The notes beneath the pieces were generated by a model. That model had not been told where the DNA came from. It saw nothing but the letters and a program-made list of their open reading frames with translations, and ran no database searches. From an uncultured Thermodesulfobacteriota bacterium (GTDB taxonomy: Bacteria; Desulfobacterota; GWC2-55-46; JADFVP01), in the NCBI GenBank assembly GCA_964472295.1, contig CAYYJQ010000002.1, forward strand, positions 32,074 through 96,073: a stretch of 64,000 nucleotides of DNA. Reading direction: 5' to 3'. This document shows, piece after piece, positions 14,066-31,132 of this stretch. The stretch's first letter is position 1. Each line of letters opens with the position of its first letter. Position numbers and translations under genes: made by a program.

Positions 14066-15595
14066 TCACATGTACCCAAGGCTCTCAAGGCGCTTACGCA
14101 TCTTCGCGTAGTCCACGGGTTCTTCTTTACCGGAGGCCGCCTCTCCGCTCTCGTAACTCTCAACGTAACGTATGGGATGTTCCTTGAGGAAGTCTTTCGT
14201 AAATATGGCCTTGACGGGACTGCCGTCCATGTCCTTTGCAACGGGATAACCTGCAAGGGCAAGTACCGTTGGAGCAACGTCCATGATGGAGGCGTCCCCA
14301 AGGGAGGAGCCTCTCTTTACGCCTTTACCGTGGAAGAGAAAGATGCCGTTATCCTTGTGCACGCCAGTAACACGGAGCTTCCTTGTGGGGAAGAGATCAG
14401 CAAAACGGTAAGTCCCCAAATCAGCGACAGAGACCTCGGTATCGTCGTTGACATCGGTACGCCAGAGCTTCGTAGTGGTCTGTATGCTGAGATACCTCTC
14501 GTACTGGTCCACCTTGAAGATGCTCTCCTTTGTCCCGGCAAAGGCTATCTTCTCGATAACACCCTTGGCACGCGCCATCTCTTCTTTATCCCTCGAGGGA
14601 AAGGTCAGGTAGACCTTTATGCCGAAACGCGCCGGTATGACGCTGTTCTCAAGGCCGAGTATCTTGAGAAACCTCTCTATGTCGAGGATATGGGGCTGAA
14701 TCGCATCGGGCATGGCACCAAAGCCGTGGTCCGATACAAGCACCACGCTTGTATCATCGTCTATCATATCAAGAAAAGCGCCCACGGTCCTGTCGAGCTC
14801 CATATAGGCCTCGGGGATGACCCCGGCAAACTTGGCAGTAGCGGCGTCAGGGGCCTTGGAAAACTTCTCGGGCTCATAAGACTCCCAGTACCTGTGCGAT
14901 ATGGCGTCGCAGAGGTGGACATGGAAGGTTGCAAACTCAGGCCTATGCCTCTTGTAGAGGTTAATAAAGAGCTCGGTAAGCATCCGGTGGTAAATGGTGG
15001 CCTTTCGCCAGTACTTGTCCAAGGGAGTGTGGCTTCCGGCCTTCTCCCAGAGAAAATACTTTAACATGTAGAGAAATGTGCTATTGCTTATCCCATTCCT
15101 CTGCAGACCTTTGACGGCCTTCAATATGGCGAAGAGCTTACCGCTCCTTGAGGCCTTCTGGGTCAACTTCCTTCTTTCCCTCAGCACCACTTCCTGAAAG
15201 GAGCTGTACTCCTCGGGATAAGTCTCCGGCCCCATGGCGAATACGCTCGGTATAATAAAGCCATTTATGGGGTATGGAGGCCAGGTTACGAGGCTTCCCA
15301 CCACCCCCACCTTATTTCCCTGGTCATTAAAGATGTCCCAGAGCCGTTTCTGACGCACGGACTTGGCGGAGTCGCCGAAGAACTCCACTCCGTGTTTTTC
15401 GGAGCTCTTCCCCGTGAAGATGCTCGTCCATATCCTCGGTGAGATCATGGGCTGTTCGGAACGGAGCACCCCCCAGGAACCGCGGTCCATCAAGCCCTTG
15501 ATGTTGGGAAGGCGCCCCTTGTCAACAAGGGGCTTCATCACATCCCATGTACCGCCGTCAACTTCCACTATTAGTATCTTAGAGGCTGGCTTCAT
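14066..15595 (-). CDS. alkaline-phosphatase-superfamily NPP-family protein (paralog 3)
   Basis: ILIVEVDGGTWDV...MISPRIWTSIFTGKSSEKHGVEFF. C-terminal tail KRLESLGYM. Confidence 0.75.
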   Translation of the reverse strand: MKPASKILIVEVDGGTWDVMKPLVDKGRLPNIKGLMDRGSWGVLRSEQPMISPRIWTSIFTGKSSEKHGVEFFGDSAKSVRQKRLWDIFNDQGNKVGVVGSLVTWPPYPINGFIIPSVFAMGPETYPEEYSSFQEVVLRERRKLTQKASRSGKLFAILKAVKGLQRNGISNSTFLYMLKYFLWEKAGSHTPLDKYWRKATIYHRMLTELFINLYKRHRPEFATFHVHLCDAISHRYWESYEPEKFSKAPDAATAKFAGVIPEAYMELDRTVGAFLDMIDDDTSVVLVSDHGFGAMPDAIQPHILDIERFLKILGLENSVIPARFGIKVYLTFPSRDKEEMARAKGVIEKIAFAGTKESIFKVDQYERYLSIQTTTKLWRTDVNDDTEVSVADLGTYRFADLFPTRKLRVTGVHKDNGIFLFHGKGVKRGSSLGDASIMDVAPTVLALAGYPVAKDMDGSPVKAIFTKDFLKEHPIRYVESYESGEAASGKEEPVDYAKMRKRLESLGYM

Positions 15596-17072
15596 CTGTT
15601 ATTTCCCCTCTTGATTTATGTAACGTATACAGAGTCTGCGCCAATGCGATGACCATCCAGAGGTTCTTGTCAAGGAGGCTGTTCGAAGTACAGAGGAAAA
15701 AGCCGTAACCGCTGAGGGTCCCGAAGAGGGCGAGGGCGAGGTACCTGGTCTTGATGTCTCCCGAGGCCCGCATGACCATCCACATGCGCTTCATTGTTAG
15801 AAGATAGAGGGCGGCGAGGATAGATAAACCGAAAATGCCATACTCCGCGGCTATCTGCAGAGGCGTGTTATGTGTCTTCATGACGGTCTCCTGAAAGGCA
15901 TTGGCGGTATGGTGGGCCGCGTAGCGTCTATAGTTGGAGACAAAGCCATCGGGGCCGATGCCGAATATGGGGTTGTCGAAGAACATGGCCAGCCCGATGG
16001 GCACGTGCTCAAGGCGCATGCTGGCGGTCTGCTCTGAGCGCCCCTCTGAAGAATAGAGCCTCTCTGTATTCATCTCCGGCATTGCGACTACAACGACTAA
16101 GAGCAACATGAAAAACCCCGCCACAATGCCGCCGAATATGAGCCACTTCCTGCGGATCTCGATAAATGTCCAGATCACCATGAGCGAAATGGCAAGGCCG
16201 AGAAGCGCGCCTCTTGAGGCGGTCAGCAGGACGTTTATAGAGGCCACGGCAAAGACAATCCCTATGAGGCCTTTTTTGAGTCTGGAGTTCACGGTGAAAA
16301 ACTTGTAGACACAAAGACTCGCTATAACGACCATGTAGATGCCGTGGTAGGGGGCGTCTCCGATGAGGCCGTTGATCCTTCCCGCGTGCACGTTAAGGAG
16401 CACGTCACTTACGTCAGCCATGAAGATTGACCTGTTCCCAAGAAGGGCATAGGGAGACATATTTATCCTCATCTCAAGAAAACCTATAAGCCCGACTATC
16501 AGCCCGCCGGCCAATACCCAGGAAATCGTCTTCTCCATCTGCTCGCGCTTCTTCAAGGCAGTCTGCAGGTAGAAAAAGATAAGCCAGGAGTATATGAAGA
16601 GCTGTATCTGCTTTGCTGCCGCGGCTATACTCTGACTGTTCTTAATAGATATGAACATGAGGATGAGAAAAGCGCTAACAAGGAGATGCTCGGGCCTCAT
16701 GACGAACATCCCTATGAACTCCCGATCCTTCTTAAGGAGCATGACCATGGTCCACATTATAAAACCAGTCATCATTATTACAGTGGATACTGGAAAACCG
16801 CCTGAGGTTACGGGCAGGTTCAAGAACGCGGCGAATCCAAGGGTCAGGACAAAGATGCGGGCAAAGAGGAACTCATGGCGGAGGTAGAATACCGTGTATA
16901 ATACGGGCATTACGAGTGCTACCCCTATTAACGGATTATAACCTACAAGGGCCGCGTAAACAAAGATGAATGCCAGGAGCAGACCAAGAGCGAGCAGTCT
17001 GAAGGCCGTGGCCATCTGGTAACCTGGCTTTTGCATGTTAATCTCGTACATCACGTCTCCTCGGTCCGGCAT
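15579..17072 (-). CDS. polytopic membrane protein, O-antigen ligase/polymerase-like (Wzy_C-type)
   Basis: At least 10 predicted TM segments read by eye, with a large loop. It sits between the paralog genes and overlaps the upstream gene by 17 nt. The family assignment is from the overall pattern only. Confidence 0.45.
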   Translation of the reverse strand: MPDRGDVMYEINMQKPGYQMATAFRLLALGLLLAFIFVYAALVGYNPLIGVALVMPVLYTVFYLRHEFLFARIFVLTLGFAAFLNLPVTSGGFPVSTVIMMTGFIMWTMVMLLKKDREFIGMFVMRPEHLLVSAFLILMFISIKNSQSIAAAAKQIQLFIYSWLIFFYLQTALKKREQMEKTISWVLAGGLIVGLIGFLEMRINMSPYALLGNRSIFMADVSDVLLNVHAGRINGLIGDAPYHGIYMVVIASLCVYKFFTVNSRLKKGLIGIVFAVASINVLLTASRGALLGLAISLMVIWTFIEIRRKWLIFGGIVAGFFMLLLVVVVAMPEMNTERLYSSEGRSEQTASMRLEHVPIGLAMFFDNPIFGIGPDGFVSNYRRYAAHHTANAFQETVMKTHNTPLQIAAEYGIFGLSILAALYLLTMKRMWMVMRASGDIKTRYLALALFGTLSGYGFFLCTSNSLLDKNLWMVIALAQTLYTLHKSRGEITDEASL

Positions 17073-17110
17073 GGGACAGTCCTCTATCTTTCTCCCTCAC
17101 AGACCTTCCC

Positions 17111-18199
17111 CTATACGTAATCGCTGTCGCCAATAGATATGTCCCACATGGCCGCGTCTGTGACATCTACGGGAGGTGCGTCTTCACGCTCCCATCTCAC
17201 AATAAGATTGTGGTTGGTCTCCTTTACGGCAAAGCCCTTGTGACGCATGACTTCCCATGCATGGGAGTCCTCTCTCAACCAGGAGTTGACTGAATCAGCC
17301 TTCTCATCATAGCAGTAATTGACCGCGCGGTTTATCAAGACCCCCGTGACATCTATTTCCGGGTCAGAAAGCAGTTCCAGTATATAGCCACGCCTCATGT
17401 CTTCATTGAGTACGGCTACGACGGTAAAACCAACGACCACGTCGCCCTTCTCTATGGCAAAGACCCGATAATTGACAGAAGGACAGTCTACATAACGCCA
17501 GTTAAGATAAGCTGAGTCCTTGTAGAGCATAACCTTTACACGGGAAGAGACCGACTTGAGGAGCCTGTCGAAGCGCTCGTCGAACCTCTTTATCTCACTT
17601 ATGCGAAAACCCTCGGGCAGGGTTACGTCCGTGGAGTGCACCATGTGCATCAACGCTCCGGAGACCTTGCCGAGCACACGAGCAAGAGGCGCCGGCGCGG
17701 CCTTTTTTCTCAAAAACTCCCCGGGGTCGAGAACCCTCACAAGACGGCGCACAGGAAAAACGCTCTGGAACTTGAGTAGGCGCCTGCTTATCTTAAGCGT
17801 CTTATGAATGGAGTACCCGAAGACAATCTTCACCCCCGCCGGAGAAAGCAACTGTGTGGCGCAGTCGTGCAGTCTGAAGAAGGGCCCACCCTTCTGGAAC
17901 TCCGGAAGTATTACGATATCACAGGTCTGCGCACCGAGGACCTTCTGTCCATCTATCATCAGCCAGGTAGGAATAGCGCCTACCTGTCCCACAACTCTAC
18001 CGCTCTGTGCCTCTACGCCCACAGCCATAATGTGAGCGCCAGCGGGATTGGCATAGTACTTCCACCTCCAGAAGGCCATGTCCTTGTCTACGCCGAAGAC
18101 CGTCTTGTAAATCGCAGGCAGATACTTCAAGTCCCGCTCTTCGAGCTTGCGTATCTCAATATTCTTGAACCTTTCCCTGGCCATACTCCCTCTTATCAC
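17111..18199 (-). CDS. GNAT-fold / FemAB-like acyl(aminoacyl)transferase
   Basis: Roughly 360 aa. The architecture resembles the FemAB/BioF2-like acetyltransferase proteins common in EPS loci. No transmembrane segment. Confidence 0.45.
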   Translation of the reverse strand: MIRGSMARERFKNIEIRKLEERDLKYLPAIYKTVFGVDKDMAFWRWKYYANPAGAHIMAVGVEAQSGRVVGQVGAIPTWLMIDGQKVLGAQTCDIVILPEFQKGGPFFRLHDCATQLLSPAGVKIVFGYSIHKTLKISRRLLKFQSVFPVRRLVRVLDPGEFLRKKAAPAPLARVLGKVSGALMHMVHSTDVTLPEGFRISEIKRFDERFDRLLKSVSSRVKVMLYKDSAYLNWRYVDCPSVNYRVFAIEKGDVVVGFTVVAVLNEDMRRGYILELLSDPEIDVTGVLINRAVNYCYDEKADSVNSWLREDSHAWEVMRHKGFAVKETNHNLIVRWEREDAPPVDVTDAAMWDISIGDSDYV

Positions 18200-19869
18200 A
18201 GGTAACCCAGGCCCTTAAGGCGCTTTGCAACCTCTTCCTCGTCCTCCTCGGAGAGGAAACTGTCAGCCCCGGAATCAATGACAACACCCTCGTCGTCACT
18301 GAAAGCCGCCTTGTGTGATCTCAGGAATCTGCCCTTGATAATGCCATCAAGGGCCTGACCATCCATTCCCCTTGGAACAGGAACTCCAAGAAGTCTTAGA
18401 ATCGTGGGGGCAATGTCCATTATGTGCGCGCCCTCTACAGCGCCCTTCTTTTTCAAGTCTTTTCCGTAGCCGAGCAGAATCCCCTCCATCCGGTGCGTCC
18501 CCCAGCCGCTCGCATAGCTTGCCTTCTCAAAGACATGTCCCTTTAACTGCACGTCCGCCAGATAGGCCCCTCCCTTCAAGAAGAAGATTATATCAGGCGC
18601 ATCGTCAAGGTAGGGGCCGCTGTAGAGTTCCTCCTTCTTGTAGGTATGTGTAACAACGGCCTCGCCCGTGGCGGGGTCCCGCATCTTTTTGAGAGCGGCG
18701 ATGAGGTCGTCCCTGAACTCCTCGTATTCCTGGCCAGGGCTTATCACGCCATCTGGCTCACGTCCCTTGAGGTTAACATAAAAGCCCTGTTCAGTATTGG
18801 AGGCGGAGTAGGCCTTTGTTTTCGACCAGTTAATAACCTGAAGAAAGTCATATGCGTGTATCCTGCCGCCCTTGCCCCTGCTCGGAAGGATTCGTTTGCG
18901 CAGATTATGTTTGTCTATCCTTCTTAAGTACCTCTTCACCTTGAGCACGCTCTGGCGGAAGGCCATATGAGAGAGTTGTTTGCTCTGATTGAGCTCCAGG
19001 TATCCTTGCTGGTGCAGCCACTGGTTGACGTATACCTTCTTTTCAAGAGGACCGAAGCCGTGGTCTGATACCATGAGGATATTGGCCACATCCCCGTACC
19101 TCTCCATGACCTTGCCCATGAATGCGTCGACCATCTGGTAGTACTCTTTTATCTTCTTAACAAAGCCCTTCTCGCGCGTGGTGAGCGAGTCCGGATCCAC
19201 GGGGTGGATGTACTTCCAGAGATAGTGCTGTATGCGGTCGGAACCGATAAATACCGAGATGAAAAGATCCCATTGCTTGTTTTCCATAAGGTACTCGAAG
19301 GCCCGGCATCTCTGCTCCGTGCACTCGATAATCTCATCGAGAAACTTCTCCACACCACGCTCGCCGTAGTACTGCCACCATACATCCATGGTGTATCCGC
19401 CGATCTTGTTCTTCACCTCCTCGAAGAGACCCTCGGGGTATGAGATGTTCGTGGCGTTCCCGGGCGTTAGAAGACCGGTAATTACGAAACCGTCAACCTC
19501 TGGCGGCGGGTACGTTAGCGGCATGTTGACCATGCCCACCTTCATCCCCGCGTCGTTTACGAGTTTCAGTATGGTAGCGCTCCTGATATGCTTGTAGTTG
19601 ACAGGGTGGCGGCCGACCTCGTTCTTGCCGGCCTTTACAAAGTCATAGATGCCGTGCTTTCCGGGGTTCTTCCCTGTCATGAAGGAGACCCACGACGGAC
19701 CGGTAACAGGGGGAATAGATGAACGGAGGTCGCCACGCACCCCTTCTGCGCACATCTTCTGAAGGTTGGGGAGCTCACCCCTCTTCATGTATGGGTCGAG
19801 GGCGTCGAAGGTGGCCCCATCGAGACCTATCACTATAACCTTTTCATTTATCTTCTTTTTCATTACCAA
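18196..19869 (-). CDS. alkaline-phosphatase-superfamily NPP-family protein (paralog 4)
   Basis: VIVIGLDGATFDALDPY...SIPPVTGPSWVSFMTGKNPGKHGIYDF. C-terminal tail KRLKGLGYL. Confidence 0.75.
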   Translation of the reverse strand: MVMKKKINEKVIVIGLDGATFDALDPYMKRGELPNLQKMCAEGVRGDLRSSIPPVTGPSWVSFMTGKNPGKHGIYDFVKAGKNEVGRHPVNYKHIRSATILKLVNDAGMKVGMVNMPLTYPPPEVDGFVITGLLTPGNATNISYPEGLFEEVKNKIGGYTMDVWWQYYGERGVEKFLDEIIECTEQRCRAFEYLMENKQWDLFISVFIGSDRIQHYLWKYIHPVDPDSLTTREKGFVKKIKEYYQMVDAFMGKVMERYGDVANILMVSDHGFGPLEKKVYVNQWLHQQGYLELNQSKQLSHMAFRQSVLKVKRYLRRIDKHNLRKRILPSRGKGGRIHAYDFLQVINWSKTKAYSASNTEQGFYVNLKGREPDGVISPGQEYEEFRDDLIAALKKMRDPATGEAVVTHTYKKEELYSGPYLDDAPDIIFFLKGGAYLADVQLKGHVFEKASYASGWGTHRMEGILLGYGKDLKKKGAVEGAHIMDIAPTILRLLGVPVPRGMDGQALDGIIKGRFLRSHKAAFSDDEGVVIDSGADSFLSEEDEEEVAKRLKGLGYL

Positions 19870-19884
19870 CCTGACTCCAACCTC

Positions 19885-20667
19885 TTAGATCCTCGCGAAA
19901 AACCTGTACCAAAAGAGGTATAGGATAAATTTTGTATTACCGATAAGGTATCTTCTCCAGAGGCGCCTCGGCTCCACGGCAAGTCTGCAGAGCCACTCGA
20001 AGCCATTGTCAAGGAGCCACGCCGGCCCCCTTCTCGTCATCTCGCTGATAAAATCAAATAGGCCGCCAACGCCCCAAACAACCTCCACATTCAGGCTCAC
20101 GGCGTACCTGTCTATCCACTTCTCCTGCAGAGGGGCGCCGAAACCCACAAGGAGTATATCGGGCTTTACCCTGTTAATCTCCTTTATGAGTTCACTACAG
20201 TCATTGTGATCAAAGTACCCATGGTGCGTGCCCACGACCTTGAGGCCAGGGGCCTGTTCCTCAAGTCTCCTTGCCGCCTCCTCTGCCACGCCCTCACCGG
20301 CGCCAAGAAGATACACGCTTATGCCCTGCTCCGCATACTCCTTGCAGAAGTCCGCGATAAAGTCCGCCCCCGTCATCCTGCCGGGCAGGCGCACCCCCCA
20401 GAGCCTCGCCCCGAGTACCACACCCACACCGTCTGCGTACACGAGGTCCGCGCTGTTAAGAATCCTCCTGTAGCCCCTGTCCTTGAGGGAAAGGAGTGAG
20501 CAGTCGGCGTTAAGATACATAATCTTTCGGACCTTGCCGTCGCCGGCATACTTTAAAGTCTTCCTGAGAAGGCCCTCCCTGTCAAGAATATCGGTCTTTA
20601 CGCCGAAAACCTCAACCGTATCCCTGGGCTCGCTATCCGCCTCTGACCTGCCACTCACTTCACCCAC
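19885..20667 (-). CDS. WecB/TagA/CpsF-family glycosyltransferase (GT26)
   Basis: LNADCSLLSLKD...YADGVGVV...VYLLGAGEGVAEEAARRL...GYFDHNDCSELIKEINRVKPDILLVGFGAPLQEKW, a characteristic GT26 signature. Confidence 0.8.
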   Translation of the reverse strand: MGEVSGRSEADSEPRDTVEVFGVKTDILDREGLLRKTLKYAGDGKVRKIMYLNADCSLLSLKDRGYRRILNSADLVYADGVGVVLGARLWGVRLPGRMTGADFIADFCKEYAEQGISVYLLGAGEGVAEEAARRLEEQAPGLKVVGTHHGYFDHNDCSELIKEINRVKPDILLVGFGAPLQEKWIDRYAVSLNVEVVWGVGGLFDFISEMTRRGPAWLLDNGFEWLCRLAVEPRRLWRRYLIGNTKFILYLFWYRFFARI

Positions 20668-22211
20668 CCCAGTTTTCGTCCCACGATAGATTCCACTCTT
20701 CTATACTCATCAAGCTTCAGGCAACGGCATACGACAAGAAAAAAGACCCAAGACACAAAGGAGATCAGGGCAATCTCGATTAACTGCACCGGCGTATTTT
20801 GAAGATTCAGGTATCTGGCAAGGATCCCCTTCATGAGCATAATGCTGACCCCCATGAAAAGCGTGGCCACACCTATCTTGAGGATTGAACCAAAGATATG
20901 GGAGATCTCTATGCCGCCAATTCCAGCATTGAGTTTCATGTAAAGCAATAGGGTCGTAAAGACCGAGACGCCCAATGTGGCCATTGGTATGCCGATAATA
21001 CCGAATATATTCATGAGGAGAAAATCCAGCAGGGCATTGAGTATGAGTGCCAGAAAAGTCACCTTGAAGGGGGTCCATGTGTCCCCTGAGGCAAAGAATA
21101 TCCCCGAGAGAATAACGCTTGTGGCGCTGAAGAGAATGGCAAGGCTATAGAAGATGAAGACACCTGAGGCGAGCACGGCCGCGTCCCCGGTAAAGTTGCC
21201 CCTCTGGTAGAGGAGCCGGATTATGGTCTCGCTGAAGTACACGAAAATTAGCACCAGCGGGGCAAGGCCGAAGAGCACGAACCTGATGGCATAGGGGACA
21301 AATTTACGAAGATAATCCATATTACCCTCGGCGACTTCCTTGGAAAGGTGGGGCATAAGGGTCTTGCCGAAGGTGGCAACAGCCAATGAGACGGGCAGTA
21401 AAGTAAGCCTGTAAGTATAGCCCAACACCGAGACCGAACCAGCCCCAAGCATTGAGGCAAATAAACGGTCTATCCCTATTATGCCCCTGTTTACGCCTAT
21501 ACCGCCGGCCCTTGGCCCCATGAGCCTTGCGACATTAATGAACTCTCTTATCCCGGAAAACCTGAACCTCGGAAGGACCCCCGCCTTTAAGAGGGCAAAA
21601 AAGAGGACGATGAGCTGAAGCGCCACCCCTGAGAGAAAACCTGCTACCACGGCCTTTATGCCCCAACGCCCTATGCCCCCGAAGAGGATGAAGGAGATGG
21701 CCCCGAGGTCGGGTAACTGCGCGGCCAGGGCCGGAACTCCAAACCTCTGGAGCGTATAGGAGAGCGCGGCCAGGAAGGCGGCAAGTCCCCCGATAAAGAC
21801 CACGGGGCTCAAGAGTCGGAGCAGGTCCACGGCAAGGAGGTAGGCCTCGGTGGAGAAGCCGGGTGCCAGCAGGGCGACGAGGTAGGGAGCAACAAGATAA
21901 AGTACGACCGCGAGCACGAGCAGGGAGAGAAAGAACCACGTAAAGATATGGTTCGCCGCCTCAACGGCCCTCTCTCGGCCCTCCTTGACATGCTTGGACA
22001 CAAGGTAGGGAACGAGGGAATAAGTGAGAACAGTATCGCCCATGCCCCATATGATGAGCGTTATCCAGACCGATATCATATAGGCGTCCGTAGTGGCGCT
22101 GACGCCGTACTCACGGGCTATTAATATGACCTGCAAGAGACCAAAGACCCCAAGCCCCAACCGGGACAGGAGGTTTATCAATGCGGATCTGCCAAGCCTC
22201 TGTTGTCTCAA
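20655..22211 (-). CDS. MOP-superfamily flippase (MurJ/MviN-like or Wzx-like)
   Basis: Roughly 14 TM helices. MurJ-like N-terminus LLSRLGLGVFGLLQVILIAREYGVSATTDAYMIS. Confidence 0.65.
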   Translation of the reverse strand: MRQQRLGRSALINLLSRLGLGVFGLLQVILIAREYGVSATTDAYMISVWITLIIWGMGDTVLTYSLVPYLVSKHVKEGRERAVEAANHIFTWFFLSLLVLAVVLYLVAPYLVALLAPGFSTEAYLLAVDLLRLLSPVVFIGGLAAFLAALSYTLQRFGVPALAAQLPDLGAISFILFGGIGRWGIKAVVAGFLSGVALQLIVLFFALLKAGVLPRFRFSGIREFINVARLMGPRAGGIGVNRGIIGIDRLFASMLGAGSVSVLGYTYRLTLLPVSLAVATFGKTLMPHLSKEVAEGNMDYLRKFVPYAIRFVLFGLAPLVLIFVYFSETIIRLLYQRGNFTGDAAVLASGVFIFYSLAILFSATSVILSGIFFASGDTWTPFKVTFLALILNALLDFLLMNIFGIIGIPMATLGVSVFTTLLLYMKLNAGIGGIEISHIFGSILKIGVATLFMGVSIMLMKGILARYLNLQNTPVQLIEIALISFVSWVFFLVVCRCLKLDEYRRVESIVGRKLGWVK

Positions 22212-22243
22212 CTCAATGCCCTCTGAAGTTCCTTAACGTCTTT

Positions 22244-23284
22244 TTACTTCTTGTAAAAGCCCAGCTCGGCTGCCCGCTTGTACACCTGTTTACGCTCCTT
22301 CAATATCCTCTCGTAATGCAGGGCATTGGAGGAATCGCACATCCTGCAAGTGGGAAGCCCCGAGAGGTCACGGTCGAGGTGCTTCCTTCTCAGCTCGTTA
22401 AAGGCTTCACTGTGCCAGAGGTCCTCTATACTCGAGTCGTTGAAGTTACCTACAGAGAGGGCGCCGTCTATATCTGCACAACATACGGTGGCGGTCCCGT
22501 CCCAGAATATGAGGAGGCGGTCGAAGAGCTGGTGGCAAGGCCTTACCTTCTCCCTTTCTCCGCGTTCCACGTGCGTAAGGTCCTCGACGTTTCCGTACCT
22601 CCCAACTGGCAGGACGTTTATCTTATCCGCATGAGCGGCCCATAGCTCAAAGACACCGTAGATCTCTTCCTCTGTGTCCTTGCTGAGTATGGTATTAATA
22701 ACCACTCGGGGTTTGTCCCTGCCCATATCGTTACGCATCTTTATCAAGGTCATTATATTATCCCTGACCTGCTCATATTTAGCGTTTACACGGATATTCT
22801 CGTAGGTTTCCCTGCTAGAGCCATCGAAGCTGAAAGTTATGGAGTCAAGCCCTGAATTGATTAGCCCTCTGGCCTTCTCCTCTGTCAAGAGCGTCCCGTT
22901 GCTTGTGAAGTAGACCCATGGCACACCCCTGTCCTTGGCATAGCGGATCATCTCCATGAGCCTGGGGTGCAACATGGACTCACCAAAGCGGTTGAGCTTA
23001 AGAACTGGAACCTTTATCTCCACCGCGTTGTCCACGATCCTCTTGAAGAGCTCCATGCTCATGAATCCGCTCTTACGCGTCATGCCGTCACGATCGCACA
23101 TAACACAGTTGAGGTTACAGACATCGGTAAGCTCGACGTAGACCGTAGGAGGAACTTTGGGAAGGATATGGAATTTTTTCTTTAAGGCCTTGCACGCGGA
23201 GTACAGAGGTTTTGCAAACCTTAGTGCTTTGACTTTTTTTAATTTTTGTATATCGGCAACCATCTCATTAGGCCTCTGATGCAA
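22244..23284 (-). CDS. radical SAM enzyme with C-terminal SPASM/twitch-type auxiliary-cluster domain
   Basis: CNLNCVMC (CX3CX2C) cluster motif. C-terminal Cys-rich region CCADIDG...GLPTCRMC. Confidence 0.8.
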   Translation of the reverse strand: MHQRPNEMVADIQKLKKVKALRFAKPLYSACKALKKKFHILPKVPPTVYVELTDVCNLNCVMCDRDGMTRKSGFMSMELFKRIVDNAVEIKVPVLKLNRFGESMLHPRLMEMIRYAKDRGVPWVYFTSNGTLLTEEKARGLINSGLDSITFSFDGSSRETYENIRVNAKYEQVRDNIMTLIKMRNDMGRDKPRVVINTILSKDTEEEIYGVFELWAAHADKINVLPVGRYGNVEDLTHVERGEREKVRPCHQLFDRLLIFWDGTATVCCADIDGALSVGNFNDSSIEDLWHSEAFNELRRKHLDRDLSGLPTCRMCDSSNALHYERILKERKQVYKRAAELGFYKK

Positions 23285-23313: not shown

Positions 23314-25350
23314 TCAGTCCAGAAAACTCTGGAGTATCTCAGGTACATACTCAGCCCGCTTGGTCAAGACGATGCCACTTACTGTACCGCCAGCTTCCCT
23401 TACCTTCTCTACGGCCCCCAAAAGCGAACGTCTGGAGGTCTGATCAGCCTCTACCGTGAGAATGACGCCATCGGCGGCGCGAGCGAGGAGAAGGGCATCT
23501 CTGAACCCCGTGGTGCACGGCGTATCGATAAGGACATATTCGTAATTCTCTCTGGCGTACTTGAGAAGCTCAGTCATCTTATCAGATGCGAGCACCTCGA
23601 AAGGGTCTTTTTTGTTCCTGAGAGGGTCCCCGGCGAATATCACCGCCAGACTGCAGGCACTGACAACAAGACCATCTGCCCCGAGGTCACTGCTGTAGTA
23701 ATCCATGAGCCCCCTTGAGGGCTTGACATCTAAAATCCCTTCGAGCGAGGGGGCCCTCATGTCAGCCTCAACGACAAGAACCTTCTTGCCGCGTTTGGCA
23801 AGGGCCCTTGCGAGAAAGACAGCAGTCGTGCTCTTGCCCTCACCGCGTCCGGGGCTCGAAATGAGATAGATACTGCTCGGCCTCTCCATGTTCTTTAACC
23901 GTATGCTGTCGGCAAGACGCTCGTAAGCGGAGAGTGACCTTGCGAGCACCTTCTCAGTAAGCATCCCCAAAAGCTTGTTGCCACCGGCGTGAGAGCCAGA
24001 GCCTATCATAGAAGCGAACACCTTTTTCCTGTTATAAAAGGGTATCATCGGGATAGCTCCAAGCGCAGGTATCGGCACCTCTGACTCAATATCTTTTAAG
24101 GACGTGAAGGACGTGCTCCAGTACTCAATCAAGAGGACGAAGGCAATGGCGGAGAACAGACTCGCCATAAGGGCCAGCGGTATAGTGATTGCCATCTTTG
24201 GCCAGTCAGGCTTTACATAGGAGTATACCTTCGCGCTGTCCAGGACCTTAATCTCAACATCCCCGACATCCGAGTTCATCAGGGCCTCAATCTCAAGAAT
24301 CTTCCCCTTGAGGGTAGTATAAAGATCCTGATGAACCTTCATGTCCTGGCTGAGCCTATCATACTCCACCTCCTCAAGAGGCAATGCCTTCAAGCGCTCC
24401 TTTATCTTCGGAATAATGGTATTCTTATACTCCTCTATCTTAGCGCCAAGGGCCCTTACCTCTGGATGGTTAACTGACTTTTCTATCCTTAATGACGCCA
24501 GCTGACCTTCCATGTCCTTTAGCTCATTCCCGTACTTATCCAGTCTGTTGAGTAATATCGTGGCCTCCTGATCATAGGAGAGTATGCCTGATTTGATCTT
24601 GTACTTACGGAACCTCTCCTGGGAGTCTTTGAGATTCTTGTCAGCCACGGCCAGCTGAACCTTTGTCGCCTCGAGCATGGAACGTAGCGGCAGTTTGCTG
24701 AGTTCCTTGTTCTTCTCCATAGCCAGCTCTACAAGCTTATTGCTGAGCGCCGTCGCTATCTCGGGAGACTCGCCCCATACCCCGACGTCTATGACTGTGG
24801 TATCCTCTTCAAGTTCTATATCCTCGAGGTCATCGAGCATCTCATCAACTGCCGAGGCAAGGTAGTTATCAGGCTTGTCCTTAAGTACGCCGATGTACTG
24901 CAAAAAGGCAAGGGGTTTGCCGATAAGAAAATCGTAGATATACCCGCGGATTATCTCCTTGACACTCTGCGGATCATTTGTCCTCTGCTCCCAGAGTTTG
25001 TCCCTCTTGAATGACTTGACAAGCTTCTCTGCAAGTTCGCGGCTTGTGAGCATCTGTATTATGTCGTTTGCCGGGTTGACGCCCGAGACCTGTCCGGCTG
25101 GCGTGGTAATGCCCTCGAACATTGAGAGTTGTTGCTTACTGCTGTACTGCACCCGTATCTTCGCCGTGGCCTTCCATGATGTGGTGACAAGGTAGGTCCC
25201 GAAGAGTATCCCCAGGAAGGTAACCCCGCAGACGAGAACGGCAAAATACTTCCTCTTGAACAGTGCATAGAGAAAGCCGTAAAGTATATCTCCCTGCGTC
25301 GATTCACTCTGCACTCTGTTTCCACTTGATGACTGGTTGGCCGGGCTCAT
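23314..25350 (-). CDS. polysaccharide co-polymerase / BY-kinase-like protein (Wzc/EpsG-like)
   Basis: N-terminal Wzz-like region with a TM helix and a second TM helix near residue 430. P-loop SSPGRGEGKSTTAVFLARALAKRGKKVLVVEADMR and Walker-B-like LIDTP. No C-terminal Tyr cluster. Confidence 0.75.
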   Translation of the reverse strand: MSPANQSSSGNRVQSESTQGDILYGFLYALFKRKYFAVLVCGVTFLGILFGTYLVTTSWKATAKIRVQYSSKQQLSMFEGITTPAGQVSGVNPANDIIQMLTSRELAEKLVKSFKRDKLWEQRTNDPQSVKEIIRGYIYDFLIGKPLAFLQYIGVLKDKPDNYLASAVDEMLDDLEDIELEEDTTVIDVGVWGESPEIATALSNKLVELAMEKNKELSKLPLRSMLEATKVQLAVADKNLKDSQERFRKYKIKSGILSYDQEATILLNRLDKYGNELKDMEGQLASLRIEKSVNHPEVRALGAKIEEYKNTIIPKIKERLKALPLEEVEYDRLSQDMKVHQDLYTTLKGKILEIEALMNSDVGDVEIKVLDSAKVYSYVKPDWPKMAITIPLALMASLFSAIAFVLLIEYWSTSFTSLKDIESEVPIPALGAIPMIPFYNRKKVFASMIGSGSHAGGNKLLGMLTEKVLARSLSAYERLADSIRLKNMERPSSIYLISSPGRGEGKSTTAVFLARALAKRGKKVLVVEADMRAPSLEGILDVKPSRGLMDYYSSDLGADGLVVSACSLAVIFAGDPLRNKKDPFEVLASDKMTELLKYARENYEYVLIDTPCTTGFRDALLLARAADGVILTVEADQTSRRSLLGAVEKVREAGGTVSGIVLTKRAEYVPEILQSFLD

Positions 25351-25589: not shown

Positions 25590-26903
25590 TTAACGAAACC
25601 CTAATGACGTTGAAGAGCCCCTTCCCACGCCGGTCTCTATGTGCTGCCCAACCCAGTATCCGGTCTCGAGGTTGAAGAGGGGTTTGAGGATTTTGTCCAG
25701 ATGGTCGAAGAAGCGGTCCACGTTTGAGATAAAGGTTCTCGGGACATATATAATATCGCCCTTTCCAACAACGGGGTTCTGGGAGATATCGCCCTTCGCG
25801 TAGAGCCTCTTGAGATCCAGAACCTGCACGTCCGCAGACTTAGTGGCGCGCCCGCCCTTTATAAGTACGATGCTCCGTTGCTTTGCATCCAAGGTCAGCC
25901 CGCCGGCCATGGCGATGGCGTCAACTACACCAGCCTGCCCGTCAGCAAGGAATACCCCCGGGTGTTGAACCTCGCCGAAGACAAATACCTTGTGCCCGCC
26001 CAGACCGCTCACCTCTACGCCTACCTGCGGGTCGGCGATCCTCTTCGGGGCGCTAATCCTCATAATGTCGAGCGAGACCTGCGGGTCAACTACGATCTTG
26101 GGCATGCCCATTGAAACAAGGTCCACCCCCACCTGCGGGTCCTCTATGAACCCTGAGAGTCCCTCGGTTATCTCCTTCCTTAAATCGCCAAGGCTCTTGC
26201 CTTCGGCGCGTATTTCGCCGACCAGAGGGATGAAGATAACCCCGTCAGGAGGAATGAACATCTTACGGCTGAGTTCTTCCTGATGGTAGACAGTAATTGA
26301 TATTTCGTCCCCTGGCGCAAGGTATGATTTGCGGTACTTGGAAAGCCCGTCTACGATGACCTGCCTTATCTCACGCAAGGACCTACCGTCAGTGTTTATA
26401 TCGCCGACAAGGGGAAAGAATATATGCCCGTCCGAGGGCACGACAATCTCCCTGCTGAATTCATCATGACCGAAGATGGCCACGGAGATCTTGTCCCCAG
26501 GTGACAAGAACTGTTCCTTGCGCTCCGAGAGCCCTTTGGTTATAACACCCCTTAAATCCTTCAGGCTCATTCCTTTCGTATCAATCTCGCCCACTATGGG
26601 GTAAAAAAACTTTCCGTCAGCGGGGATCCTGATTTTACGTGTAAGGTCTTCATGCCCGTAGACAACGATTGAGATTTCGTCTCCGGGAGAAAGCATAAAC
26701 TTGCTGACCCCAAGTTTCTCTGTAAGAGCCCCTCCTGTAGGGGCACCCTCTGCACCGCCTTCCTGGACAGTACCCGGCGGCACGGGAGCGCTATCGCCAT
26801 GCCCCCTGAGTCCCGCGCACCCCTCTATCGCAGAAAGTAACGCGAGCATGAGCAGGAGGGCAAAGATTTTTCCAGTTTTATTCGCCAATTTTTCCTTCAT
26901 CAA
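25590..26903 (-). CDS. outer-membrane polysaccharide export lipoprotein (Wza/OPX family) with three tandem Poly_export-type repeats
   Basis: Signal peptide with Cys, ALLLMLALLSAIEGC. Three consecutive roughly 55-aa repeats LSPGDEISIVVYGHEDLTRKIRIPADGKFFYPIVGEIDTKGMSLKDLRGVITKGL, LSPGDKISVAIFGHDEFSREIVVPSDGHIFFPLVGDINTDGRSLREIRQVIVDGL and LAPGDEISITVYHQEELSRKMFIPPDGVIFIPLVGEIRAEGKSLGDLRKEITEGL. Confidence 0.75.
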   Translation of the reverse strand: MMKEKLANKTGKIFALLLMLALLSAIEGCAGLRGHGDSAPVPPGTVQEGGAEGAPTGGALTEKLGVSKFMLSPGDEISIVVYGHEDLTRKIRIPADGKFFYPIVGEIDTKGMSLKDLRGVITKGLSERKEQFLSPGDKISVAIFGHDEFSREIVVPSDGHIFFPLVGDINTDGRSLREIRQVIVDGLSKYRKSYLAPGDEISITVYHQEELSRKMFIPPDGVIFIPLVGEIRAEGKSLGDLRKEITEGLSGFIEDPQVGVDLVSMGMPKIVVDPQVSLDIMRISAPKRIADPQVGVEVSGLGGHKVFVFGEVQHPGVFLADGQAGVVDAIAMAGGLTLDAKQRSIVLIKGGRATKSADVQVLDLKRLYAKGDISQNPVVGKGDIIYVPRTFISNVDRFFDHLDKILKPLFNLETGYWVGQHIETGVGRGSSTSLGFR

Positions 26904-27374
26904 TAAGCACCAGTTTTTTAGAGACCTCTCGGATGAAACTTAAAATATCCTTTATTCTTTATCCCAGCCCATTTATATTAATTTCTCACACACCTCACAT
27001 CGTTACACCCTGGCAACCCGGCCATGAAAGACTATCTCCCCACATACATACCAGCCCCACTTATGCCCTCTCGTTCCAGGCGCTCAGGCACCCAGCCACA
27101 AAAACCGTCCCTACCTCCCCCGCCCCCCTGCCCTCTTTAACCACAAAGGTGCAAAGCAGGGTCTTGCCGATATTACCAGCACCCCTCATGTACCAGGACC
27201 TCACCCCGTCCCGCCCAATCCCAAGCGGTACTGGGCCGACCAGGATCATATCACAGATGAAGACGTTGAATAAGCGCGTAAAGCGCTACGATAAGCCCAA
27301 ATCACCTGTCACCAGACTTCAGAGCCCCCGTGAGAAGGAAGCTCTTTAGAACACCATTTGCTGTACCCCTATTC

Positions 27375-29129
27375 TTACCTGGCTCCTATCTTCTTTAGAA
27401 GCACATTAAAGGTCCTCAAGATTATCTTCAAGTCCCCTATAAGCGACTGTTCCTTCACATAGGCGACATCATACCTTATCCAGTCATGGAAGTATGGACT
27501 GCCCCTTCCCTCCACCTGCCAGAGCCCTGTAATCCCGGGCTTCACCCTGAGCCTTATATCCCTCCAGCTCGGGCTGAACTTCATCTCGTCCATAACAAGG
27601 GGCCTTGGCCCCACAAGGCTCATCTCGCCCTTGATAACGTTAATGAGCTGCGGAATCTCATCAAGACTCGTCTTTCTGAGGAAAGCGCCCACCCGTGTAA
27701 TCCTCGGGTCCCTGTCCATCTTGAATACAGGGCCGTCCACGTTCTTGCTCTCCATGTATTTTTTCTGCAGTTTGTGTGCGTCCTTTATCATTGTCCTGAA
27801 CTTCAACATGCCAAACTCGCGCCCGTCCTTGCCGCAACGCCTCTGGCGGTATATGACAGAGCCCGGAGAATCGAACTTGATGACAAGGGCTATGACCAGC
27901 ATGAGTGGGGAGAGCGCCATGAGCGCAACGGCGGAGAGAACGACATCCATGGCCCTCTTTGTAATGAGATAGGCCTGCGACTTCACCGCCTCCATCTTTG
28001 CCATGGAAACGCTGCTTATGCCCTCGGCACTGTCCCTTGAAGGGGCAAGGTTCATGTCCCCATGTTTTATATCACCCACAAGTGCCTTGTTGTTATAGGA
28101 ACGGCCTTCTTTTATATCCGAATTGGAGGCGGCCACGCAGTAAAAGAGGCTCGCCCGGCTCATTACCTTCGTGTCCTGCCAGAGTATGCTCTCCCGGACA
28201 ATGGCGCCCTCGTCCACCACGCACCCGCGGCCGAGTATGACCGGCCCAACGATCTGAGCGTGGTCCTTTACAACGCAGTTGTCGCCGATGACGGCAGGCC
28301 CGATCAGATAAGACCTCGGTGATATTGCCACGTTCTTTCCAACCCAGACATTGGCGCCAACTTCCTTGAGCCCGCTTGGCACATGGCCCTTGAGGATGCG
28401 GGACCTGTGAAGGTTGTAATAATCATCAATACTCTCAATGGTCCTTATAAAGCCCTCGAGCCTGTGAACATATACAGGCATTGAGGCCTTTTTCATGGCA
28501 GGGAACAACTGCTCCTTTATATCAAAATACCCTTCGCTGTCCACAAGAGAGAGCACCTTGGAATTCACCATGAAAATGCCCTCGGACTTTACGAGGGACC
28601 GCCTGTTCCTTGAGGCATGGATAATGGAGATGTCATCGACAAGGCCGTCATCGCGGGCCTTGATGGTCTCGAGTGTGGCGTCCCGCCTGCACGAAGCCCC
28701 GATGGTAAGGGCCGCCCCCTTGTTCATGTGAAATCTTATCAACTCGTCAACAGCGCTGTACTCGGCATAAGTGTTGCATTGCATAACAAGGACATCGTCG
28801 TCCTCGAAAAAGTCCCTGAGGTCGCGAAGGACCCCTGCCGTGCCCCGCGGCCGATCTTCCTCGTAGTACTCTATCTTTACGGGTGGCCTCCTGCCTCCAA
28901 AGTGCTCCGACGGGTCTACAGGCCGGGCGCCCTTGCGTCCAACTACCACTACGCTGGAGATGCCGTTGTCAGAGAGACACTGGATGGTCTGTTCCAGTAT
29001 GGGCCTGTTAAAGACCGGCAGGGAACATATTGGGGCGTGCTTGATGAGGGGCCTGAGGAGAGCGTTCTCTCCATCGGCAAGGATAACCGCCCTCTTTACC
29101 CTGGCTTTGATATGCGCGTGGTTAATCAT
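27375..29129 (-). CDS. fusion of nucleotidyltransferase-like domain, left-handed beta-helix domain, and polyprenyl-phosphate sugar-phosphate transferase (initiating PGT, WbaP/PglC-type)
   Basis: N-terminus RAVILADGENALLRPL has the NTP_transferase fold with the glycine-rich motif degenerate. Hexapeptide repeats VGKNVAISPRSYLIGPAVIGDNCVV. TM helix, then the bacterial sugar-transferase core SVIYRQRRCGKDGREFGMLKFRTM...DEIPQLINVIKGEMSLVGPRP...PGITGLWQV. Confidence 0.75.
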   Translation of the reverse strand: MINHAHIKARVKRAVILADGENALLRPLIKHAPICSLPVFNRPILEQTIQCLSDNGISSVVVVGRKGARPVDPSEHFGGRRPPVKIEYYEEDRPRGTAGVLRDLRDFFEDDDVLVMQCNTYAEYSAVDELIRFHMNKGAALTIGASCRRDATLETIKARDDGLVDDISIIHASRNRRSLVKSEGIFMVNSKVLSLVDSEGYFDIKEQLFPAMKKASMPVYVHRLEGFIRTIESIDDYYNLHRSRILKGHVPSGLKEVGANVWVGKNVAISPRSYLIGPAVIGDNCVVKDHAQIVGPVILGRGCVVDEGAIVRESILWQDTKVMSRASLFYCVAASNSDIKEGRSYNNKALVGDIKHGDMNLAPSRDSAEGISSVSMAKMEAVKSQAYLITKRAMDVVLSAVALMALSPLMLVIALVIKFDSPGSVIYRQRRCGKDGREFGMLKFRTMIKDAHKLQKKYMESKNVDGPVFKMDRDPRITRVGAFLRKTSLDEIPQLINVIKGEMSLVGPRPLVMDEMKFSPSWRDIRLRVKPGITGLWQVEGRGSPYFHDWIRYDVAYVKEQSLIGDLKIILRTFNVLLKKIGAR

Positions 29130-29462: not shown

Positions 29463-30083
29463 CTATCTATGACTCTCGAAAATCCTACAAATAAGAAGCG
29501 AGCGGTTGTTGACGCCTATCTTCTGCATGAGGCTCTTCACGTGGTCCTTCACCGTATGCTCGCTTATGAAGAGAAGACCGGATATGTCCCTGTTGGTCAT
29601 GCCCCTGGCAAGCCCCTTCAAGACCTCGGTCTCGCGCTTTGTAAGCCCGAACCTCGAGCAAATCTTGCCGATGTCAGCCGTAAGCCTCGTAGAGAACCTC
29701 TCCACTGTAATCATTACATGGGAGGCGCCGTCTTTCTTTGAGATCCTGTGTATGGGTATGGCCCTGAGGAAGTACTCCTCTCCCATGGAGACGATATTCT
29801 TGTAAATAAAGTGTTTTTTACCCTCCTTTTCCTCCCCTTCCTCCTTTTCCTCTCCGCCCATGGCCGAAAGGAGTTCATCGCAAAGCGATGGTATGGGTTC
29901 TGGCAAAGAGACGTCCTTCCCATCGGCGGGGTCCGGCTCCAGGTCCCCTTTTCCCATGAGGCCGCGGAGGAATTTTCGGGCCTCCTCGTTAACATAGAGG
30001 AGTTCCTTGCCGGCGCTCAATATCATCACCCCCGCAAGGGCCCGTTTCTGTATTATATCGCTATACGAATCCATACCAGTCAA
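29463..30083 (-). CDS. LuxR-family transcriptional regulator (PAS-like N-domain + LuxR HTH)
   Basis: C-terminal LTKRETEVLKGLARGMTNRDISGLLFISEHTVKDHVKSLMQKIG. It is transcribed divergently from the plus-strand glycan operon. Confidence 0.8.
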   Translation of the reverse strand: MTGMDSYSDIIQKRALAGVMILSAGKELLYVNEEARKFLRGLMGKGDLEPDPADGKDVSLPEPIPSLCDELLSAMGGEEKEEGEEKEGKKHFIYKNIVSMGEEYFLRAIPIHRISKKDGASHVMITVERFSTRLTADIGKICSRFGLTKRETEVLKGLARGMTNRDISGLLFISEHTVKDHVKSLMQKIGVNNRSLLICRIFESHR

Positions 30084-30385: not shown

Positions 30386-31132
30386 ATGAGCCTATCGGAG
30401 ACCAACAAGAGGATCTGGGACGGATTTGTCCCTGATTACGTTGACAAGAGGGTGGAGAAGATCCTCGACCTCCTGCCCTCTTCCCTTAAGAACCCCCGCT
30501 ATCTTGACATAGGTTGCTCCAACGGGGCGGCGACAATGCTCGTGGCAGGACGCATAGGGGCGGACGTGGTAAAGGGCGTTGACCTTGTGCTCACTGACGA
30601 GGCAATAAAAAGGGGCGTTGACGCCTCAGCCAATGACCTTAACAGCGGCGAGCCGCTACCATTTGACGACAACTCCTTTCACGTCGTAACGTGCATGGAG
30701 ACCCTTGAGCACGTCCATGACACGGACTTCCTCCTCTCGGAACTACGCCGCGTCCTCCAAGACGACGGCACAGCCATAGTGGACATTCCGCGCCTTGACT
30801 CCATGATGAACGTCCTACTCCTCTTCTTCGGTTTTCAGCCCCCTGGAGTTGAGTGCTCGGCAAAAAAAAGATACGGCGCCATAAACGAGGGGAGCATCCT
30901 TACAGGCCATGTATCGTACTTTACAAAGCGGGCCTTCATGGAGATACTCGGGGCCAGCGGCTTCAATGTCCTTGAATTCGCCCAGAGCGGGCAGAAGAGC
31001 GACTGGGAGGCCGTGCAGGCAAAGCTTGGCCGAAGGCCCGGAACCATTCCAAGGCTCCTCTGGACGCTCTACGACCTTATCCCCTTCAAGAAAGACTACA
31101 TGATAGCGAAGATCGGGAAAAAGATTAGATGA
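30386..31132 (+). CDS. class I SAM-dependent methyltransferase
   Basis: Motif I YLDIGCSNGAATMLVAG and an acidic motif II. It overlaps the next gene by 4 nt (ATGA). Confidence 0.7.
   Translation: MSLSETNKRIWDGFVPDYVDKRVEKILDLLPSSLKNPRYLDIGCSNGAATMLVAGRIGADVVKGVDLVLTDEAIKRGVDASANDLNSGEPLPFDDNSFHVVTCMETLEHVHDTDFLLSELRRVLQDDGTAIVDIPRLDSMMNVLLLFFGFQPPGVECSAKKRYGAINEGSILTGHVSYFTKRAFMEILGASGFNVLEFAQSGQKSDWEAVQAKLGRRPGTIPRLLWTLYDLIPFKKDYMIAKIGKKIR

Follow-up and report, generated by a model that had tools for sequence, protein, structure and literature searches.

In this study we describe a fusion protein from an uncultured Thermodesulfobacteriota bacterium, encoded at positions 27375 to 29129 on the (-) strand of a 64,000-nucleotide stretch of contig CAYYJQ010000002.1 (in the following referred to as the window). 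In this protein a nucleotidyltransferase (NT)-like domain and a left-handed beta-helix (LbH), together called the N-module, precede a monotopic phosphoglycosyl transferase (PGT). The reading to which we give about an even chance is that of an initiating PGT with a built-in pseudo-enzyme, a sensor or scaffold, that gates the committed step of the pathway. According to this model the gene product would be the initiating PGT of a Wzx/Wzy- and Wza/Wzc-dependent exopolysaccharide pathway, and its C-terminal PGT would act at the cytoplasmic face of the membrane, where it would move a sugar-1-phosphate from a nucleoside diphosphate sugar (NDP-sugar) onto polyprenyl phosphate. The bundle of four transmembrane helices and the PF13727 domain of large PGTs would be replaced by a soluble cytoplasmic module derived from an NT of the GDP-mannose pyrophosphorylase/UDP-glucose pyrophosphorylase (GMPP/UGPase) type with LbH. 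This pseudo-enzyme module would bind a nucleotide or nucleotide sugar and/or oligomerise via the LbH, and would thereby gate the PGT at a step that consumes carrier lipid.

The gene consists of one unbroken open reading frame (ORF) of 584 codons with an ATG start. In the encoded protein Pfam recognised NTP_transferase (PF00483, amino acids (aa) 14-151, 44.2 bits against a cut-off of 21.2), Hexapep/LbH_EIF2B repeats (aa 260-352, where GMPPB_C also matched) and Bac_transf (PF02397, aa 391-578, 223.4 bits against a cut-off of 27, E 2e-66), of which profile positions 1-178 of 179 were covered. In NCBIfam, a mannose-1-phosphate guanylyltransferase model covered aa 14-342, and the C-terminal half of EPS_sugtrans (TIGR03025, model positions 237-444 of 445) aligned with aa 371-583 at 279.7 bits, which is under its cut-off of 295.55. 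An AlphaFold2 (AF2) model built from 69 family sequences (mean predicted local distance difference test score (pLDDT) 83.2, predicted template modelling score (pTM) 0.80) consists, in order, of an alpha/beta domain, the LbH, a linker, a long helix (377-420) and the PGT domain. The LbH appears in this model as a strand ladder of about five coils (aa 255-351, pLDDT 89-97), and a pTM of 0.80 in a protein of two modules hints at a defined arrangement between them. When the N-module was compared with the PDB by Foldseek, the best match was tlr0611 (8x7s, E 6e-21, TM-score 0.74 on the target), followed by GMPPB, VTC1, Leishmania GDP-mannose pyrophosphorylase, GMPPA (7d72_B, E 5e-18; 8yre), ADP-glucose pyrophosphorylases and the gamma and epsilon subunits of eIF2B. 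The two-domain NT and beta-helix layout that had been proposed in the initial annotation of this gene is real.

The PGT part carries the D490-E491 dyad and the P508-R509-P510 motif, which are invariant in 69 family members, and K391, D395 and P408 are invariant in the family as well. Judged by profile, dyad and PRP motif, it is predicted to be a fully equipped member of the monotopic PGT superfamily. Hydropathy analysis revealed only one hydrophobic segment in the whole protein (aa ~393-422), with S407-P408 in its middle, and DSSP assigned one continuous helix from 377 to 420 on the AF2 model. In monotopic PGTs (PglC-type enzymes), the re-entrant helix is recognised by a break at Ser-Pro. Because of this signature, and because with any other topology the N-module and the catalytic domain would not both be cytoplasmic, the helix is predicted to be re-entrant and not membrane-spanning. 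The nearest PGTs without the N-module (44-54% identity over aa ~360-583) are overwhelmingly 460-540 aa long, and PF13727 was present in all six that were tested. Since these nearest relatives are large and PF13727-bearing, the core is assigned to the large-PGT type rather than to the small one. The initial annotation had described a canonical small PGT domain behind one transmembrane helix; the complete catalytic domain was borne out, whereas the size class and the spanning helix were not. The best NCBIfam models for this part were EPS_sugtrans, WbaP and WcaJ, the last two being galactose-/glucose-1-phosphate transferases, and the first glycosyltransferase after the PGT in the operon belongs to the WecG/TagA family. 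The donor sugar is probably a hexose.

None of the known classes of monotopic PGT (monoPGT) describes the full-length protein. Small monoPGTs of the PglC-like type consist of the core only (~200 aa), and the present protein has 584 aa with an N-terminal extension of 376 aa. As to the large class, PF13727 was not found, there is no hydrophobic segment before aa 393 and the TIGR03025 match is sub-threshold. As to bifunctional monoPGTs, the protein does have a second domain, but one in which the catalytic residues are replaced.

To describe this replacement, residues of VTC1 were mapped onto the protein via HMMER alignment to VTC1 and GMPPB. Residues 18-28, for which the motif ADGENALLRPL had been quoted correctly as a degenerate nucleotide-binding loop, align with GGFGTRLRPL of GMPPB/VTC1 and with AGKGTRVRPI of 8x7s. 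In VTC1, G9, T12, R13 and K23 form the pyrophosphate (PPi) site, G85 contacts the base by hydrogen-bonding guanine, N173 and G146 contact the sugar, and D111, D219 and E195-K196 are catalytically critical (PMC9168903). Of these, G9 and G85 are kept as G20 and G96, whereas T12, R13, K23 (the Lys of the PKP motif), D111 and D219 are lost, their places being taken by A23, L24, I34, N119 and T230. E195-K196-E197 is replaced by K205-E206-Q207, and the position of the E-K-P motif reads I-I-H or H-A-S depending on the alignment and is free of Lys either way. In 118 close homologues, position 119 was occupied by N in 81, S in 29 and D in a single sequence, and position 24 by R in 30, S in 23, L in 15 and K in 13; D was outside the eight commonest residues at position 230 and K outside the six commonest at position 34.

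As a control, 61 more distant fused representatives were compared with 64 non-fused catalytic relatives from the same search, the latter being stand-alone enzymes of ~350-480 aa and NT-phosphomannomutase fusions of ~800 aa. The Arg of the G-loop was present in 97% of the non-fused proteins, and was outside the four commonest residues in the fused ones. For the PKP Lys the values were 100% versus 52%, for the first metal-binding Asp 100% versus 8%, and the second Asp, present in 100% of the non-fused relatives, was again outside the four commonest residues in the fused set. Because of this comparison, loss of the G-loop Arg and of both metal-binding Asp residues is taken as a shared trait of the PGT-fused lineage that extends to nearly all members. 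In the clade of the present protein, the PKP Lys and the G-x-G-T core are missing as well; the Arg and the two Asp seem to have been lost first, and the Lys at a later stage in this clade. Having lost the Arg of the G-loop, the Lys of PKP and both metal-binding Asp, the N-module is predicted to be catalytically dead and no longer to make nucleotide sugars. We know of no sugar-1-phosphate nucleotidyltransferase (RmlA/GlmU/GMPP family) that works without the Arg, both Asp and the Lys. The view that the module is unlikely to be a catalyst, put forward from the G-loop, is thus extended to the PKP Lys, both Asp residues and the EKP Lys. The label 'glycosyltransferase / NDP-sugar pyrophosphorylase' given by annotation pipelines implies an activity that the residues do not support.

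Loss of these residues was not accompanied by a general loss of constraint. Identity to the present protein was 0.71 for the NT domain, 0.79 for the LbH, 0.61 for the linker and 0.82 for the PGT domain within its own clade (71-79% identical overall), compared with 0.35, 0.39, 0.22 and 0.67, respectively, in the rest of the family, the linker being the least conserved segment of the fusion. Invariant or near-invariant in the NT domain are P94, G96, A98, G99, E154, H171, S173, R177, G184 and D203 to L208, of which G96, A98 and G99 (the GTAG of the base-contacting loop) are invariant; in the LbH they are W262, G264, G277-P278, G295-P296 and R312-E313-S314. Several of these residues distinguish the fused proteins from their catalytic relatives. 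E154 was found in 79% of the fused representatives, where the relatives have Gly (98%), and K205, E206 and Q207 reached 82%, 98% and 98% in the 61 distant fused representatives, where the relatives have S/E-K/R-D. E206 and Q207 are invariant in the family alignment, and G295-P296 is family-specific (100%). Within the clade GYFDIKEQLFP is identical in 12 of 13 members and IIH(A/S)SRxRR nearly so, and many other clades have a well-conserved GGQGT(S/R/K)L loop. This pattern argues that the N-module is under strong purifying selection and is not decaying. Conserved polar and basic residues seem to have taken over the lining of the former substrate pocket, beside the retained base loop, which suggests a ligand site that was remodelled and not abandoned. 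Two further ideas were considered and dropped. Relaxed constraint on the G-loop of the clade was not supported, as its nine-residue window is no outlier (69 of 231 windows were equally or more variable) and allows no statistical claim. An acetyltransferase function of the LbH (GlmU or PglD type) was rejected, since the helix is short, has no conserved His (H290, the only one in the LbH, lies outside the invariant and near-invariant columns) and is matched best by the non-catalytic models LbH_EIF2B and GMPPB_C.

From the strongly conserved, remodelled pocket and by analogy with GMPPA and the accessory domain of WbaP, we infer ligand binding, oligomerisation and a regulatory effect on the PGT. 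In its more specific form, this would make the N-module a GMPPA-like sensor, the pocket of which (GTAG, E154, H171, R177, K205-E206-Q207) binds a nucleotide or the NDP-sugar of the pathway and switches the PGT on or off; we hold this form to be plausible, with somewhat less than an even chance. Several observations weigh against a ligand-sensing module. In the clade of the present protein the centre of the G-loop varies and none of the phosphate-binding residues Arg, Thr and Lys is left, so that nucleotide binding may be weakened or lost in this protein. Sugar-nucleotide synthesis genes were not found in the window, nor is a catalytic sugar-1-phosphate nucleotidyltransferase encoded anywhere in it. 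The eIF2B gamma and epsilon subunits show that NT and LbH modules can serve purely structurally. Finally, three candidates for split, two-gene versions of the fusion were found, none of them robust: one is a fusion broken by a stop (locus L091) and two lie on short contigs (L090 and L092). At L091 (802-2532) a homologue aligns to aa 13-573 in a single frame with an in-frame stop inside; the gene caller yields a 403-aa N-module and a 135-aa Bac_transf fragment, and a sequencing error, a pseudogene or recoding are possible.

The first alternative is a purely structural scaffold without a small-molecule ligand, in which oligomerisation via the LbH would position or stabilise the PGT at the membrane or replace a dimerising accessory domain. 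Loss of all phosphate-binding residues of the G-loop and the variable loop centre speak for it, as do the conservation within the module, which is highest in the LbH (G295-P296 and R312-E313 being invariant), and the eIF2B subunits among the structural matches. Moreover, the LbH mediates dimerisation in VTC1, GMPPB and ADP-glucose pyrophosphorylase (AGPase) (PMC9168903), and dimerisation of WbaP requires its accessory domain (PMC10942596). However, the most conserved NT residues (G96/A98/G99, E154, H171, S173, R177, D203 to Q207) are polar and equivalent to a ligand pocket, and do not belong to the hydrophobic core. Near-invariance of pocket positions down to ~27% identity would be unexpected in a scaffold. 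The well-conserved GGQGT(S/R/K)L loop of many other clades also speaks against it. We regard a purely structural role as unlikely.

A docking platform, which we consider improbable, would recruit an active nucleotidyltransferase or, for example, the Wzc kinase, via LbH-LbH pairing of the GMPPA-GMPPB type or another surface, and the resulting membrane-tethered complex would feed or control the PGT. GMPPA and KONJAC indeed heterodimerise with catalytic paralogues through the LbH (PMC9168903), tyrosine phosphorylation of PGTs by bacterial tyrosine kinases (BY-kinases) was reported (PMC12802240), a Wzc-like BY-kinase is encoded in six of seven operons, and at one locus (L004) the operon includes a ManC gene. 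A catalytic NT and LbH paralogue was, however, absent from the window and from most related loci, and the ManC of L004 is of another type (ManC beta-helix and cupin).

That the protein is genuinely bifunctional, with an N-module that makes an NDP-sugar using non-canonical residues, or has a new activity, and hands its product to the PGT, is highly improbable. Both COG names (glycosyltransferase and NDP-sugar pyrophosphorylase) are assigned by the pipelines of the Joint Genome Institute (JGI), the model shows an intact fold at high pLDDT, the PKP Lys persists in half of the distant fused members, and a new active site could in principle arise from the conserved polar cluster (E154, H171, R177, K205, E206, Q207). 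Against this stand the Arg and both Asp, near-universal in the 64 nearest catalytic relatives and missing from essentially all fused proteins, and the additional absence of the PKP and EKP Lys from the present protein, the same residues being PPi-binding or catalytically critical in VTC1 (PMC9168903). An active bifunctional enzyme was judged unlikely after this audit against solved structures and catalytic relatives.

That two genes were joined by annotation or assembly, through a missed stop or a frameshift, is virtually excluded by the unbroken frame in the window, by an identical 584-aa protein on two independent metagenomic contigs and by 118 full-length homologues (552-618 aa) of the same architecture from many samples and phyla. 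The layout was found in all 120 best homologues (41-100% identity), the remaining two being fragments. When only the N-module (aa 1-365) was used as the query of an exhaustive phmmer search of 1.84 billion 50%-identity representatives, 103 matches were obtained at E <= 1e-30, and a PGT was also present in 66 of the 147 new proteins among the best 150 matches. The fusion thus occurs in at least 118 90%-identity clusters and in ~69 of the best 150 50%-identity representatives. By names and record titles its members come from Thermodesulfobacteriota (72% identical), 'Deltaproteobacteria', Nitrospirota, Schekmanbacteria, Acidobacteriota and Phycisphaerales (Planctomycetota). A scan of a genome collection with PGT-core patterns recovered mostly ordinary large PGTs and only two fusions (L006 and L007), and is unfit for counting.

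The fusion is genuine, old and widespread across several mostly uncultured phyla. The initial annotation had called the architecture atypical for a PGT and had allowed for an artefactual joining or for a widespread, already annotated standard family. The architecture is indeed absent from the small and large classes, yet it is not rare; the joining is natural, and although the family is widespread, NCBIfam holds no curated full-length family for the NT, LbH and PGT fusion. Pipelines name the proteins 'sugar transferase', 'exopolysaccharide biosynthesis polyprenyl glycosylphosphotransferase' or by a COG double name that includes 'NDP-sugar pyrophosphorylase'. Literature searches for an NTP_transferase and PGT architecture returned nothing relevant, the primary network analysis of monoPGT fusions, which could list this combination, being outside their scope. 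In the literature searched, a dead nucleotidyltransferase in place of the accessory domain of a large-PGT-type core is undescribed.

A single PGT-containing match retained a fully intact nucleotidyltransferase. This protein, P0251 (NCBI MBU0650371.1, 781 aa, on a 2963-bp contig), keeps GGFGTRL, the Lys at the PKP-motif position (VTKSM), GD and WKDIG. It was considered as an active ancestor and rejected, as it is a singleton of uncertain integrity with a differing architecture (glycosyltransferase family 2 (GT2), NT/LbH and only the second half of Bac_transf).

The genomic context was analysed in the window and at related loci, and the coordinates of the gene, its domains and its neighbours are listed in Table 1. 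At each of the seven loci studied, among them those of homologues with 41-49% identity, the fusion gene stands at the head of an operon with wza and is followed by a Poly_export gene, and the locus of a 49%-identical homologue (L086) is gene-for-gene syntenic with the window. No convincing terminator was found between the fusion gene and wza, and an Rfam scan of the whole window gave no matches. The 470-nucleotide gap between the two genes (26904-27374) contains a 62-aa ORF called by JGI (27061-27249, (-)), for which no family match was obtained.

Table 1. Coordinates of the fusion gene, its domains and motifs, and neighbouring features in the window.
Feature	Position in window	Strand	Residues	Basis or remark
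Pseudo-nucleotidyltransferase / beta-helix / monotopic PGT fusion, whole gene (predicted)	27375..29129	(-)		Stop codon 27375-27377
NTP_transferase-like (GT-A/Rossmann-like) domain, predicted to be catalytically degenerate	28380..29096	(-)	12-250	PF00483 and Foldseek
Remnant of the G-x-G-T-R loop, ADGENALLRPL	29046..29078	(-)	18-28	Arg equivalent is L24
RPRGTAG loop (base-contacting in nucleotidyltransferases), kept	28833..28853	(-)	93-99	
Family-specific GYFDIKEQLFP loop	28500..28532	(-)	200-210	K205-E206-Q207 in place of catalytic E195-K196-E197 of VTC1
Short LbH, GMPPB/eIF2B type	28074..28379	(-)	251-352	LbH_EIF2B, Hexapep, GMPPB_C
Low-confidence linker	28002..28073	(-)	353-376	pLDDT 52-73, <50 at 365-369
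Amphipathic helix and predicted re-entrant membrane helix	27870..28001	(-)	377-420	S407-P408 break
PGT catalytic domain	27378..27869	(-)	421-584	D490-E491 dyad, P508-R509-P510
Promoter-like site TTGACA-17-TATTTT, ~195 nucleotides 5' of the start codon	29325..29353	(-)		Consensus scan only, no evidence of function
LuxR/GerE-family regulator, upstream	29463..30083	(-)		Pfam GerE, E 4e-18
Wza-like outer-membrane polysaccharide export protein, downstream	25590..26903	(-)		Pfam; three Poly_export repeats and SLBB
Wzc-like co-polymerase / BY-kinase	23314..25350	(-)		Pfam; Wzz, GNVR, AAA_31
Rest of the Wzx/Wzy-type operon	15579..23284	(-)		Pfam; radical SAM/SPASM, MurJ-type flippase, WecG/TagA-family glycosyltransferase, PF01663, GNAT, Wzy_C polymerase

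Several further features of these loci were recorded. The radical SAM/SPASM gene (22244-23284, (-)) between the Wzc-like gene and the flippase gene is unusual for a Wzx/Wzy operon and occupies the same place in L086 (15197-16234). Four paralogous PF01663 proteins ('Phosphodiest', alkaline-phosphatase superfamily; 10850-12520, 12532-14301, 14066-15595 and 18196-19869, all (-)) are encoded inside the polysaccharide operon; they are 26-45% identical to each other and have no signal peptide. The ORF at 12532-14301 probably starts near codon 87, which would remove its overlap with 14066-15595. A fifth, more distant PF01663 protein (1109-3115, (-)) has a hydrophobic N-terminus, and PF01663 genes accompany the fusion PGT in L086 and L004 too. 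In four of six related loci a gene pair for an AMP-binding (acyl-adenylate-forming) enzyme and a zinc alcohol dehydrogenase follows directly after the fusion PGT or wza (L003, 12206-14868; L004, 11874-14533; L088, 11747-14409; L089, 13059-15718); this pair is absent from the locus in the window. In its N-terminal half the LuxR/GerE regulator contains an unusual low-complexity stretch rich in Glu and Lys, GGEEKEEGEEKEGKK, and in L089 a GerE regulator likewise lies upstream of the fusion gene, beside curli-type CsgE/F/G genes. A second glycan cluster, of the ATP-binding cassette transporter type (Wzm/Wzt), is divergently transcribed. It contains the gene for a 1216-aa protein with glycosyltransferase family 4 (GT4) domains and a C-terminal sulfatase/SGSH_C (39648-43298, (+)). 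Directly upstream of the Wzm/Wzt genes (34158-36218) lies the gene for a 1009-aa protein (31129-34158, (+)) that has a PMT_2 (GT-C-like) membrane domain at its N-terminus and a long TPR array at its C-terminus.

The initiating step consumes undecaprenyl phosphate, which is scarce, as well as shared nucleotide sugars, and few post-translational controls of PGTs are known, namely phosphorylation of CapM on Tyr, nucleotide sensing by the accessory domain of WbaP and the response regulator EpsW (PMC12802240, PMC10942596). Next to small and large PGTs, the fusion family would form a third class of architecture, in which a metabolic enzyme of the preceding step was recruited, inactivated and retained as an accessory module. 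If the N-module is indeed a sensor, it would provide metabolite-level control of the committed, undecaprenyl-phosphate-consuming step, would represent a second, independently evolved counterpart of the accessory domain of large PGTs, and would be the first pseudo-enzyme regulator described for the monotopic PGT superfamily. Pseudo-nucleotidyltransferase regulators are known elsewhere, and the fusion is no categorical surprise. As a soluble module with clear candidate pocket residues, the N-module offers a tractable system for asking whether nucleotide-sugar availability gates PGTs.

Among known systems, the closest relatives of the N-module in both sequence and structure are catalytic enzymes of the GMPP/UGPase type with LbH (8x7s; GMPPB, 7d72; VTC1, 7x8k; Leishmania GDP-mannose pyrophosphorylase, 7whr), which were matched with E 7e-21 to 5e-12 in phmmer and with TM-scores of 0.70-0.75 on the target in Foldseek. 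They have the GTAG loop, the N-K/R-P motif and the FH motif in common with the N-module, which differs from VTC1 in replacing the equivalents of R13, K23, D111, D219 and E195-K196. GMPPA and KONJAC resemble it in combining the NT and short LbH fold with a non-catalytic role. GMPPA, a paralogue of GMPPB without catalytic function, binds GDP-mannose and regulates its catalytic partner (PMC11228364; PMC9168903), and the loop equivalent to the KEQ loop of the present protein is reported to participate in GMPPA-GMPPB allostery (PMC9168903). The N-module differs in being joined covalently to a membrane enzyme with which it shares no homology, whereas GMPPA regulates a homologous soluble enzyme as a polypeptide of its own; the two are only ~16% identical. 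The gamma and epsilon subunits of eIF2B (GCD1/GCD6) likewise contain NT-like and LbH modules without nucleotidyltransferase activity as structural or regulatory parts of a larger machine, were among the sequence and structural matches, and gave the best Pfam LbH model for the present protein (LbH_EIF2B). They belong, however, to a eukaryotic translation factor without a link to glycan synthesis, and the resemblance is at the level of fold and repeat only (15-16% identity). Together with GMPPA they are well-known cases of non-catalytic regulatory or scaffolding uses of this fold.

With large PGTs (WbaP, WcaJ, EpsZ) the fusion protein shares the PGT core, the position at the head of a Wzx/Wzy pathway and a non-catalytic cytoplasmic domain of a nucleotide-binding fold directly N-terminal to the membrane helix. 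In WbaP this accessory domain binds UMP, UDP and UTP and forms the dimer interface, and UMP inhibits the enzyme with a half-maximal inhibitory concentration (IC50) of ~4 uM (PMC10942596). Unlike these enzymes, the fusion has neither the four-helix transmembrane bundle nor PF13727, and its accessory module is of an unrelated fold, a GT-A-like nucleotidyltransferase with LbH. Alignment upstream of K391 revealed no convincing similarity to the dimerising inter-domain beta-hairpin motif of large PGTs. Extra domains on monoPGTs are already known from large PGTs, bifunctional PGTs and receiver-domain fusions (PMC11626204, PMC12802240, PMC10186338). In bifunctional monoPGTs, which resemble the fusion in that one terminus of a small catalytic PGT core bears an additional soluble domain, the PGT is fused to an active acetyltransferase, glycosyltransferase or sugar-modifying enzyme (PMC11626204, PMC10186338). 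The partner is thus described there as an additional catalytic domain, whereas the N-module of the present protein would be a pseudo-enzyme.

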